DNA from: a candidate division WOR-3 bacterium
GTDB lineage: Bacteria; Hydrothermota; Hydrothermia; B15-G9; WFZT01
Length of the DNA: 64,000 nt
Direction: 5' to 3'
Assembly (NCBI GenBank): GCA_027053075.1
Contig: JALUEE010000033.1
Coordinates: forward strand, 96,001-160,000
Below are positions 24,967 through 43,483 of this stretch, in pieces. The position numbers and the translations under genes are program-made. Positions within the stretch are counted from its first letter, which is position 1. Each line of letters starts with the position of its first letter. Under the pieces are notes generated by a model, which did no database searches, had not been told where the DNA came from, and saw only the letters and a list, made by a program, of their open reading frames with translations.

Positions 24967-25303
24967 AAGCTTGTTCGAAAAATCTTAAATTTTAGTTACC
25001 ACCTTATTCGTCGAATCTTCGTAACCTCAACGATAATCACAGACAAGTCGGTAAATTTCCCCTCCTTCCAAAGGAAGGAGGGGTTAGGGGAGAATGGAAA
25101 AAATAAATGAACCTTATGTTTTACCGACTATAATTTCTCCATTCTACCACGACCCTCCCTTCCACAGGTAAGGGAGGGAGTTTCGCTACTTGTCATATCA
25201 AAACTAAAAAAATCTTGGATTACTTAATTTTTAGCATTACTTTTCATCTCACTCCACTCGCACCGCACAAAATTATAAACGGGGGATATTTTCGAACAGA
25301 CTT
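24967..25303. mobile_element. MITE-like element, family A copy 1
   Basis: Ends AAGCTTGTTCGAAAA and TTTTCGAACAGACTT; two internal inverted REP-like hairpins; the core is an inverted homologue of 41453-41626. Confidence 0.7.
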
Positions 25304-33267: not shown

Positions 33268-33517
33268 TCCTCCTGGAAATTAAAGCCTAAGATGAAGGTA
33301 TCTCGAGGCTGGCTCACCAAGTGAGTTTTACAATTCATATCATACGGAAAATTCTAAATAAGTAGCCCTGCAAGTATTTATGGGGGGAGAGAGGAAATTC
33401 TCAGGCAAAGTAAACATAACGAGAAGTGAAATTTTTGTAGAACATAGTAACAGTTTCAAACGAGCTCCCCATCAGTTGAATAAAATTGGTGTGGTTATTA
33501 TAATTACTCCACCTCAC

Positions 33518-33595
33518 GGGGCGCGTAGCTCAGCTGGATAGAGCACCTGACTGTGGATCAGGTGGCCGCGGGTTCGAATCCCGCCGCGCCCCCCA
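33518..33595 (+). tRNA. tRNA-His(GUG) with encoded G-1 and CCA
   Basis: Anticodon arm CCTGA-CTGTGGA-TCAGG, T arm GCGGG-TTCGAAT-CCCGC, C73; promoter TTGAAT-17-TATAAT at 33476-33504. Confidence 0.97.
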
Positions 33596-40245: not shown

Positions 40246-41082
40246 TCAGGGAACGAATTTGAACGTAACAGTATGGGTAAGTGGCAGGTCCGGATTATAC
40301 CACAGTGCGTAATCAAACTGGAACTTTCTGACCTTAAGCCCAACGCCGCTGGTGAACCTAAAAAGAGAGCCCTCACTCATCAGTCCGGCACGGAGTTTTG
40401 CAAATTCCAGAACCTTAACTTCCTCTCCAATGGAAATTCTCACAGGATAGTCCTTTGATTCTCTGAGTTCAAATGATGTCAGCGAATACCTGCCACCCTT
40501 GAAAGAGACTCCACCCTGAATCCAGAATGGTAGCTCTTCGGTGCCTGTTTGAGCCGTAAGCCTCGGATTATTCAGATTGTGAATGGAAAACCCAAGGCTC
40601 CATCTATCATAAATCTTTGCAAGAACACCAAAATCAATGCCAAAAGTGGTTGCATTTCCAAGATTCATGGGATTCTGGAGATGATAGACATTGAGGTTGA
40701 AACCGGCATATAAATTTGACGAGACGGGAAATCCATGCGAAAGCACGATGGTATTCTCAGCATAGGTCTCATTATCAAACTGCGCTGAAAGCCTCAGAAT
40801 AGAGACTGCAAACTTGCGATTGAGGATTTTGAGAGGTCCATACTGGAGTGTCAGCCCTTTTAGTCCGGCTCCGAGTGAGGAGTAAAGGTAGTTGTAATAG
40901 GCTGATATTTCGCGACCGTTCAGGGTAGCCGTAGCAGCGGGGTTAAAAATCACGCCTTCCACGCCCTCTGCGATGGATGTGTAAGCATTGGCAAGGGCAT
41001 CGGAGCGTGAGCCTGAGTAGTCAAACTCAAAGGCTGCATTCAAAAGAGAAAATGTGAGAATAACAATTCCTATCCATTTCAT
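40246..41082 (-). CDS. PorV/PorQ-family outer-membrane beta-barrel protein
   Basis: GSRSDALANAY...FNPA, GIDFG, NLNNP, LRAG and FQFDYA motifs. Confidence 0.72.
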   Translation of the reverse strand: MKWIGIVILTFSLLNAAFEFDYSGSRSDALANAYTSIAEGVEGVIFNPAATATLNGREISAYYNYLYSSLGAGLKGLTLQYGPLKILNRKFAVSILRLSAQFDNETYAENTIVLSHGFPVSSNLYAGFNLNVYHLQNPMNLGNATTFGIDFGVLAKIYDRWSLGFSIHNLNNPRLTAQTGTEELPFWIQGGVSFKGGRYSLTSFELRESKDYPVRISIGEEVKVLEFAKLRAGLMSEGSLFRFTSGVGLKVRKFQFDYALWYNPDLPLTHTVTFKFVP

Positions 41083-41138
41083 ACCCCACAATTATAATTG
41101 ACCTTCCTCAAAATATACAAGCTGGGGGAAAATGAGGA

Positions 41139-41301
41139 GGAGATGGGATGAGTGAGTGGTTTCTTCCCTACCCCTGGGGCTTTACCCCTGAGAGGAGATA
41201 TCTCCTCTCAGGGGGGCCTCGTTATTCGTGCCTGAATCACTCGATTCAGGAGGTTAGGCTATTTTTCAAACACTCTGAGAGGAGATGCTCATCCCATCTC
41301 C
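41139..41301. repeat. Nested palindromic element
   Basis: Outer 14-bp inverted repeat at 41139-41152/41288-41301; 30-nt perfect palindrome at 41185-41214; hairpin at 41231-41250. Confidence 0.75.
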
Positions 41302-41357
41302 ATTTTTAAATAGCAATAATTTTATAAAACTTTTCCTTTGAGAATTCAAGAGGTCGG

Positions 41358-41710
41358 CAACCTGTTCGAAAATGTTCCTCTGGTTACTTTTAGCTCCGAG
41401 TGAATAGATTGAATATAGAAGTGAGGTTAAACAAGTTACCTTAAGCATCTTAAGTAGCAAACTCCCCCCCTTCCTCTGGAAGGGAGGGTTGGGGTGGAAT
41501 GGATAAATTTAGTTGTATCAATGTATGTTCAGAAATATAGCTCCATTAGACATTTCAAATCCAAGGATTGTTAATTTTACCCCATTCTCCCCTGCCCCCT
41601 CCTTCCCCTGGGAAGGAGGGAGAATTTACGACGGGTCTGCTATAATTAATGGGATTATGAGGGTCTTTTAAAAAGGTGCAACTTAAATTTAGGATATTTC
41701 GAACAGGCTC
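41358..41710. mobile_element. MITE-like element, family A copy 2, with 9-bp target-site duplication
   Basis: Ends CAACCTGTTCGAAAATGTTCCT and AGGATATTTCGAACAGGCTC, flanked directly by AGAGGTCGG at 41349-41357 and 41711-41719. Confidence 0.85.
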
Positions 41711-41755
41711 AGAGGTCGGTGAGTCCTGAAAGATCATCCCTCAGGTTCTACCATT

Positions 41756-43483
41756 TCATATGTCAAGAATTTGCTGCTGGATGGTAAACATTGAGTAGTA
41801 GAGACCCTTTTTCGCAATCAGCTCATCATGCGTGCCGCTTTCCACAATCCTGCCAGATTTCAGCACAAAAATTTCATCCATCAGGTGCATGTGTGTTAGT
41901 TTGTGAGTTATGAAAATTATCGTCTTTTCCCTCAGTGCCTCAAAAATATCGTCAAGAATAGCCCTTTCGGTAATGGCATCGAGATTTGCCGTGGGCTCAT
42001 CAAGAATTAGGATTGGACTGCCTTTTAAGACAATTCGTGCAAGGGCTATTCTCTGCCTTTCACCACCACTCAAAAGTCCGCCGTGTTCCCCCACAAATGT
42101 GTCGTAACCCTCAGGCAGGCTCATTATAAAATCGTGTATCCTGGCTATGCTTGCAGCCCTGATAAGGTCCTCATCACTGGCGTTAGGCCTGGCAAGCAGT
42201 ATGTTTTCCCTGATTGTTCCGGTAAAAAGGTAGGTTCTCTGCGTCATCACACTGACAAGGTCCCGCACAGTCTCCTGCTTGAGGTCCCGAATTTCAACGC
42301 CACCTATCCTGATGCTGCCCGATTTATAGTCCCAGAATCTCAAAAGAAGATTTGCAATGGTCGATTTCCCCGCTCCACTTGGGCCCACAACTGCCACCTT
42401 CCCACCCTCACTAACATTCAGAGAGATATTTTTCAAAACAGGCTCTATTTCATAGGCAAAAGTTAGATTATCAATCTTTACATCGAACCTCTCAGGCGGA
42501 GATGACGGATTTACGGGATCAATGACAGCCGGTTTTTTATCCACAATCTCGAAAAGTCTTTTCCCCGCTTCAATAGTGCTTTCGAGAAGCTGAGCTGCAC
42601 CTGGCAATGGTAGAATCGCCTCAAAGCTCGTCAGGGCTGCAAGAGAGAGAACCGCGATCATTACCCCTCTAAGCTTCCCGAGGTCATGGAAATGGATGGC
42701 AATAATAAGAACTGCGAGTGCGCCAAATCCTGAGAAAATGAGAAGCAGCCCATTTTGCACTCCTTCGAGGTTTCCAAGTTCCTTCTCAATTTTTATCATG
42801 GCATTTCCATGTGAGTTCACTTTTTCAAGCTGTTTTCTATCGTAGCCAAAAACAATGAGATCAGCGAGTCCTTGAACCGCGTCCACAATACTGGTGTAAA
42901 GCCTTCCTCTTTCTCTTATAAGTCTCCTGCCCTTGCTCCGGGCGGTTAGATATGCAAATCCAGGCACAAAGAGTGCTCCAGATAGTAGAAACCCTGCGAG
43001 TACAATTGAAAAAATCTTTCCCCAAATACCCATGAAAATCGCCATTATCAACAGTATGATTAAGAAAACAAAAGGAGGGTAGACCACACGAACGAACAGA
43101 TTTTCAAGAGTCTCAATATCTGAAACAATCCTCGAGAGAATTTCCCCAGATTTGTATGAAATGAGCCCTGCCGGCACCAGAGGCTCAAGTTTTTCGTAAA
43201 ACCAGACCCTGATATACCCGAGAATTTTAAATGTGAGGTTGTGGGCAAAAAGTCGCTCAAAATACCTGAAAACACCCCTTGAGATTCCAAAGAATCTCAC
43301 TCCTGTGATCGCAAGCTGAAGGGTGTAGAGCGCCGGGTGCAGTGCCGCTTTCGCTATGATGTAAGCAGATGTGGCCATCAGTCCTACACTGCTCAAAATT
43401 GTTGCTACTCCGAGAAGCGCTGCAGCAAAGATACCAGAAACGTATGGCTTCAGAAACGCAAGCAGCCTTCGAAGTGTCCTCAT
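41756..43483 (-). CDS. cydC: Thiol reductant/heme ABC exporter subunit CydC
   Basis: GVRFFGISRGVFRYFERL..H and ABC motifs GPSGAGKS, LSGGERQR. Confidence 0.93.
   Translation of the reverse strand: MRTLRRLLAFLKPYVSGIFAAALLGVATILSSVGLMATSAYIIAKAALHPALYTLQLAITGVRFFGISRGVFRYFERLFAHNLTFKILGYIRVWFYEKLEPLVPAGLISYKSGEILSRIVSDIETLENLFVRVVYPPFVFLIILLIMAIFMGIWGKIFSIVLAGFLLSGALFVPGFAYLTARSKGRRLIRERGRLYTSIVDAVQGLADLIVFGYDRKQLEKVNSHGNAMIKIEKELGNLEGVQNGLLLIFSGFGALAVLIIAIHFHDLGKLRGVMIAVLSLAALTSFEAILPLPGAAQLLESTIEAGKRLFEIVDKKPAVIDPVNPSSPPERFDVKIDNLTFAYEIEPVLKNISLNVSEGGKVAVVGPSGAGKSTIANLLLRFWDYKSGSIRIGGVEIRDLKQETVRDLVSVMTQRTYLFTGTIRENILLARPNASDEDLIRAASIARIHDFIMSLPEGYDTFVGEHGGLLSGGERQRIALARIVLKGSPILILDEPTANLDAITERAILDDIFEALREKTIIFITHKLTHMHLMDEIFVLKSGRIVESGTHDELIAKKGLYYSMFTIQQQILDI

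Follow-up and report, generated by a model that had tools for sequence, protein, structure and literature searches.

The window analysed here, a stretch of 64,000 nucleotides from a candidate division WOR-3 bacterium (contig JALUEE010000033.1), contains a 353-bp element that is a MITE: it has terminal inverted repeats and a target-site duplication, is short and multicopy, has an empty site in a congener and shares its ends with an autonomous insertion sequence (IS). That such MITEs and the IS clade sharing their ends insert at promoters is a reading in which we have high confidence. The whole explanation, in which an ISAae1-like enzyme positioned by RNA polymerase moves the MITE, the duplication is anchored on the −35 box and BoxC-like repeats ride along as passengers, seems to us probable by a good measure. 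Neither MITEs nor promoter targeting is new in itself. With a single-protein transposase of 309 aa and base-pair precision beside the −35, the present family offers a compact and testable model system for transcription-guided integration; if the explanation is true, it would also represent a second evolutionary origin of bacterial promoter targeting, besides the Mutator-type elements, a natural means of mapping promoters in uncultured hosts and, possibly, a delivery tool that spares genes. For the old question of how BoxC/triplex repeats spread, the cargo is of interest because a pair of them is carried here by an element whose empty site is known.

The 353-bp element, its copies and its empty site

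The element occupies positions 41358–41710 and is abutted, as the preliminary description of this DNA had it, by a perfect 9-bp duplication, AGAGGTCGG, at 41349–41357 (left) and 41711–41719 (right). Its terminal inverted repeats, about 16–17 bp in full, lie at 41358–41374 (plus strand, promoter-facing) and 41694–41710 (minus strand) and contain an 11-bp core, CCTGTTCGAAA, that forms a perfect inverted pair (41361–41371 and 41697–41707); they are indeed imperfect, the left end of this copy differing from the family consensus at two places, positions 1 and 3. Alone, the 11-mer core is weak evidence in the window, where it has four matches with at most one mismatch, a number reached by 8 of 100 shuffles. 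No ORF of at least 80 aa overlaps the element, in agreement with its description as lacking a transposase. An Rfam scan of the element gave no family at the gathering score, with two weak hits far below it, and the whole element folds no better than its shuffles (z −0.9); its structure is limited to the ends and two internal units.

The element has a minus-strand gene on either side: an uninterrupted ABC transporter gene (41756–43483), whose 3′ end comes 37 bp before the right duplication, and a gene for 281 aa (40246–41091), which faces the element with its 5′ region and has weak PorP/TraF_2-type matches below the cut-off. Position 41349, in the left duplication, is the first T of a −35-like hexamer, TTGAAT (41344–41349, minus strand), which starts 8 bp outside the left end and is the likely target landmark; 17 bp after it comes a −10-like hexamer, TATAAA (41321–41326, minus strand). 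The 281-aa gene lies downstream of this putative targeted promoter (41349–41321), which a strict scanner does not list because TATAAA lacks the last T. Between the putative promoter and the gene start at 41091 there is a different repeat (41136–41301), with perfect inverted arms of 14 nt set 135 nt apart and an inner palindrome with 15-nt arms; 69%-identical copies of it are found on contigs C98, C22 and C14, and it is also present at the empty-site locus of the congener. Elsewhere in the window, a second, diverged copy of the doublet-carrying family is located at 24967–25303 (minus strand; 68% identity, the clean duplication gone), and another end of the same type, with three mismatches, at 33452–33467 (minus strand) stands 8 bp ahead of a TTGAAT-17-TATAAT that is the putative tRNA-His promoter (tRNA at 33519).

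In the genome under study (hereafter G000) the 16-bp end motif occurs 41 times exactly, 112 times with at most one mismatch and 200 times with at most two, compared with 0, 0 and 9 times in a reversed-genome control. When ends were paired within 600 bp and at most one mismatch was allowed in the duplication, 38 elements with the same ends and duplications of 9–10 bp were counted (exact duplications: 17 of 9 bp and four of 10 bp); 18 further pairs of good ends are without a duplication. By internal family, the 38 comprise 19 elements of ~122 bp, eight of ~350 bp with the doublet, three of ~300 bp with the doublet, four of ~350 bp with other content and four singletons. The 353-bp element itself has 24 matches in G000, 20 in the sister species of the same genus (G004) and none in 39 other relatives, so that element and exact end are present in two of the 41 genomes searched, both of one genus. 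In a broader search with the 16-mer, of 80 loci inspected among the matches listed, only one resembles a true element (a Desulfobacterales MAG; 114 bp, 10-bp duplication).

Seventeen aligned members of the family are 57–92% identical to the 353-bp copy, which marks the family as old, and 15 of the 17 carry both units. As these members occupy different sites, the earlier proposal that the MITE spreads the doublet is borne out. The second 350-bp family consists of the 122-bp MITE with an element of ~215 bp nested in a hairpin arm (G000 C29:12345-12694, C16:4133-4484, C23:46038-46389 and C50:11549-11898); the nested element has inverted ends of its own, 57 of which are found genome-wide in G000. 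In one member of the doublet-carrying family (G000 C40:15321-15560), whose duplication is still visible, the two units are merged into one hybrid hairpin, likely a product of recombination between arms.

An empty site, which the preliminary description had suggested looking for in relatives, is present in the sister species (G004:C180), where both flanks are matched at 94%, the 9-mer stands once and there is nothing between. The other four congeners match these genes only in separate pieces. The difference may reflect an insertion in G000, the reading adopted here, or a loss in G004. Since the nearest copies are 89–92% identical, below the 94% of the flanks, none of them stands out as the donor. 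Contigs of related strains end at 41357 or begin at 41711; as no joint across the element is listed, these contig ends are no proof of an empty allele.

The probable partner insertion sequence

A transposase gene within the same ends, which the preliminary description proposed to search for, is found in the congener, where an intact IS of 1,061 bp with a 10-bp duplication carries a single ORF of 309 aa between ends that are complementary at 15 of 16 bases (G004:C168). The autonomous IS is thus intact in G004, and G000 has it only in decayed form (C33:173063-173564 and C75:558-1230); no intact transposase was found in the 95% complete assembly of G000. Together with the copies bearing terminal inverted repeats and 9–10-bp duplications and with the empty site, this IS upholds the earlier reading of the element as a DDE-mobilised MITE.

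The 309-aa protein matches PF01609 (DDE_Tnp_1) at 43 bits (cut-off 23) and scores 104 bits against the NCBIfam IS5 model NF033579, whose cut-off is 140. In the transposase alignment D112, D188 and E246 are invariant, and these residues together with Y239, R242 and K253 are invariant or nearly so; they include the spacing Y-2-R-3-E-6-K, a motif that we take to be the mark of the IS5 family. The predicted structure has an RNase H-type DDE fold (pLDDT 87.5). In Foldseek its best match is ISCth4, of IS256/Mutator type, at a low TM-score (0.41–0.47), and its highest TM-score is to Tn5; the protein has no Mutator Pfam match, and C/D(2)H is absent after the second D.

The transposase is 40% identical to a protein annotated as an IS5-like ISAae1 transposase (WP_010880899.1), encoded on plasmid ece1 of Aquifex aeolicus (NC_001880.1). 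ISAae1, an IS5-family element of ~1,010 bp, has similar 16-bp ends and a 9-bp duplication; next to its duplication stands TTTACA, which resembles a −35, and a −10-like hexamer comes 16–18 bp further on. In a literature search, neither MITEs of ISAae1 nor a target rule for it were found described. The MITE and the IS are alike in their ends only, so that parentage has to be argued from the ends and the target rule (see below); on this sequence evidence an IS5-type DDE transposase like that of ISAae1 is the likely mover, acting on the MITE in trans. A comparable pair is MITEAba12 and ISAba12 of Acinetobacter, a MITE and a 1-kb DDE IS that are alike in their 16-bp ends only and have 9-bp duplications; MITEAba12 differs in that its targets, according to the available text, are AT-rich and show no trend in sequence, one insertion being inside hns, with neither a promoter rule nor a triplex-like cargo (PMC6382973).

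When 150 other genomes of the phylum were searched with the transposase profile, none gave a match. Four more DDE_Tnp_1 loci in G000 were considered as partners and rejected, no matching pair of ends being found at the gene boundaries, and IS1182-type families yielded nothing useful. Several full-length related ISs (L164–L168, L176 and L177) have good ends and mismatched flanks, which suggests rearrangements between copies; one of them has a −35 on both sides. On a Thermus thermophilus plasmid (NZ_LR027520.1, locus L187) there is an unannotated 1.03-kb element, presumably ISTth7, with a 25%-identical transposase and a 9-bp duplication and with no adjoining −35 at this one site.

Insertion beside promoter −35 boxes

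Offsets were read outward from the 200 ends of G000 that have at most two mismatches. TTGA begins at offset 8 in 40 of these ends and at offset 9 in 21, and in 0–6 ends at each other offset between 0 and 29; the two offsets thus account for 61 of the 200 ends, the share at other offsets being 0.8% each (p = 6e-58). In 37 of these 61 the hexamer is followed by TAnnnT exactly 17 bp on, as compared with 194 of 3,753 intergenic TTGA (5%; p = 9e-31), and for the full TTGACA the corresponding figures are 16 of 25 versus 52 of 283 (p = 3e-6), intergenic DNA being defined roughly by masking ORFs of at least 120 aa. The ORF nearest in the promoter direction points away in 44 of the 61 TTGA ends, versus 65 of the 139 other ends, and ORF starts cluster 43–48 bp from the end. 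Nine of the 61 ends are at tRNA promoters, 49–58 bp before the tRNA gene, in a genome with 43 tRNA/tmRNA genes. The 353-bp copy is a weaker example of the rule: its TTGAAT stands at offset 8, and TATAAA comes 17 bp on. The preliminary description was right about a DDE-mobilised MITE and missed the promoter targeting.

The relation between duplication and hexamer is precise. The −35 hexamer begins on the last duplicated base in 20 of 30 elements with 9-bp and in six of eight with 10-bp duplications, a longer duplication moving the offset by exactly one base; as the hexamer keeps this place at both lengths, the cut on the promoter side would always separate base pairs 1 and 2 of the −35, and only the far cut would slip, by one. 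The rule extends to other genomes. In G004 the same offset is seen at 21 of 57 exact ends, and of 16 that were inspected nine show a −10 box at 16–18 bp, ends common to G000 and G004 not being independent; in other hosts, at transposase-bearing loci and one MITE locus, 13 of 29 ends are at the offset, ten of them with a −10 box at 16–18 bp. At a tRNA-Gly promoter the two species share an older element, behind which each has a MITE of a different family at the same duplicated site, and five pairs of ends are stacked 9–11 bp apart.

In the mechanism that we propose, the transposase would pair two ends of 16–17 bp and would be positioned at a promoter by the promoter-bound sigma70 RNA polymerase holoenzyme; of the two staggered cuts, one would part base pairs 1 and 2 of the −35 and its counterpart would lie 9 or 10 bp farther upstream. 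Repair would duplicate these 9–10 bp and restore the −35, and since spacer and −10 would also stay intact, the gene and its core promoter would be spared and the upstream (UP) region replaced. Repeated hits on one promoter would give rise to stacked elements.

That polymerase or sigma, rather than the DNA alone, steers the enzyme is a view towards which we lean slightly, and it is the dependence on the −10 that favours such guidance over direct readout of the hexamer. The same MITE and transposase could, however, work with an enzyme that reads the −35 directly as a one-sided motif, the link to the −10 then arising from bent, melted or accessible promoter DNA and the enzyme making no contact with the polymerase. 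Sigma region 4 binds the −35, and the cut placed inside this box would be crowded if the holoenzyme stayed bound; moreover, 24 of the 61 TTGA-side ends are without TAnnnT at 17 bp. Direct readout has to contend with the fact that intergenic TTGACA mostly lacks a −10 at 17 bp (231 of 283), yet such sites make up only 9 of 25 targets, and that the spacers of targets, 37 of 17 bp to 8 of 18 bp, match the promoter-like excess of the genome. We regard direct readout as unlikely, at roughly one-in-three standing.

In the available text of PMC3942029, promoter targeting is described only for the Mutator-type TnGBS ICEs and the ISLre2 and ISKra4 elements (p-MULT 3/4), which insert 13–17 bp upstream of the sigmaA −35 and make 8–9-bp duplications. 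A Mutator-type enzyme (ISLre2, ISKra4 or IS256) as the mover of the MITE could call on this precedent (PMC3942029) and on an IS256-type gene in G000. The IS256 copy on C46, however, has other ends and an internal stop, the distance is 8–9 bp here instead of the 13–17 bp described, no p-MULT gene bounded by these ends was seen, and it is an IS5-type IS that bears these very ends and follows the same target rule; a search with PF06782 carries no weight here, having matched nothing in its control either. A Mutator-type mover is thus very unlikely. As far as the available text allows a comparison, the present family resembles TnGBS, ISLre2 and ISKra4 in its fixed distance upstream of the −35 and in the length of its duplications, and its 122-bp members face the promoter in either orientation, as do those elements with two near-perfect ends (PMC3942029). 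It differs in its IS5-type transposase with Y-2-R-3-E-6-K, as against C/D(2)H, in the distance, and in a duplication that takes in the first T of the −35 (PMC3942029). The family works like these elements and is no member of them. No such promoter target rule is given in the available text of PMC6352166 and PMC3184786, and a search of mostly open-access literature, ISfinder not included, did not turn up any account of IS5-type elements that target the −35.

Near-random insertion, followed by survival of only those copies that spare genes and promoters, would suit a family old enough (57–92% identity) for selection to have acted. To our knowledge, nearly all surveys of transposable elements find an intergenic bias. 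The TTGA peak at offsets 8 and 9 is nevertheless so sharp that selection alone is excluded as its cause, for selection gives no base-pair precision, and it does not account for the length of the duplication shifting the offset by one base; we consider the survival filter extremely improbable. A palindromic flanking target read by a transposase dimer, as in IS903 (for whose target motif a literature search found no paper), with the likeness to a −35 being coincidental, would find TCA before and TGA after the duplication of the 353-bp copy and a palindromic look in the symmetrised matrix, which has it by construction, but it is excluded by one-sidedness: among the 38 elements the −35 is on one side in 25, on both in one and on neither in 12 ("neither" meaning no TTG-starting −35 at up to two mismatches), the 25 far, non-promoter flanks have no motif, and a −10 follows at 17 bp, so that we give this reading next to no credence.

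The BoxC-like units, probable passengers

Inside the MITE are the two oppositely oriented units of the preliminary description, unit 1 at 41465–41501 (plus strand), type-B-like and a predicted class II intrastrand triplex, and unit 2 at 41583–41620 (minus strand), type-A-like and tail-to-tail with unit 1. Each consists of a pyrimidine arm, a loop, a purine arm, a 3-nt loop and a mirror purine tail; both pass a 9-triad finder, 10 of 11 triads fit in each by inspection, and the tail varies together with the arm between the two unit types. The second loop of unit 2 is GCA, TTA being the commonest second loop of the type-A-like family genome-wide. A scan listed no terminator inside the element, and a terminator role of the units was thus dropped.

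The units had been called REP-like. As a hairpin doublet this stands; as REPs of the RAYT type it does not, and BoxC/PIT/TM-like triplex motifs take their place. PF01797 (Y1/RAYT) was found in none of five genomes of the genus (assemblies 82–96% complete), its control matching in 6 of 14. In the available text of PMC4666352, BoxC/PIT/TM_ECO repeats have a loop of either of two types, an inverted pair invariably combines a type A with a type B, and no link to transposons or mobile elements was found. The pair in the MITE has the same class II layout, A+B composition and inward tails (PMC4666352). It departs from the TM_ECO consensus in its 11-nt arms (PMC4666352), and its carrier is a MITE for which an empty site exists. 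The published TM_ECO pattern has six matches in G000, and neither unit's tail fits it by inspection. From their sequence, the units are an inverted A+B pair of 11-nt-arm variants of BoxC/PIT/TM_ECO, with a predicted triplex, and are likely passengers of the MITE.

G000 contains 149 triplex-like motifs, and a block shuffle none. Since 82 of them lie near no end (more than 330 bp from any), compared with 31 between two ends and 36 near one, the MITE is one vehicle of these motifs and not their source; the pair would have entered an ancestral MITE from a self-spreading repeat family, possibly a DUF559-linked one. Over the 17 aligned copies, conservation is 0.90–0.92 in the units versus 0.74–0.79 in the arms and spacer, a difference for which selection, or else homogenisation with the free-standing copies, could be responsible. 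A broader joint reading is tentative, and we would sooner bet against it than for it: the IS5-type clade of ISAae1 and its vent relatives would have evolved docking to sigma70 polymerase independently of the Mutator lineages, cutting inside the −35, integrating at the upstream edge of the promoter and favouring strong (tRNA) promoters, the MITEs would be a demonstrable vehicle of BoxC/triplex pairs, and the excess conservation of the pairs would indicate a function in the element.

The large share of motifs away from any end, and the occurrence of triplex-like motifs at 13 of 22 DUF559 loci from the phylum, when control loci amounting to 361 kb contain none, might instead speak for a BoxC/REP-like doublet that is itself mobile, by an HUH or DUF559 enzyme, with the terminal inverted repeats and duplication incidental. 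For the 353-bp copy this is refuted by an empty site that is without the entire 353 bp; elements of other content have the same ends, duplication and target, and no Y1/RAYT gene was seen in any of the five genomes searched. Such a doublet is hardly credible as an explanation of the element, and may still apply to free-standing units. For these copies only, the DUF559 link is a lead; a literature search did not find DUF559 tied to BoxC. One DUF559 endonuclease gene of G000 (C26:16563-16877) lies within clusters of canonical BoxC/TM motifs.

One −35 site has different occupants in the two species: in G000 (C73:28770-28891) it holds a 122-bp MITE, and in G004 (C156:5200-6100) a cluster of triplex-like hairpins, ~570 bp long, that opens with the end motif cut down to its first bases.
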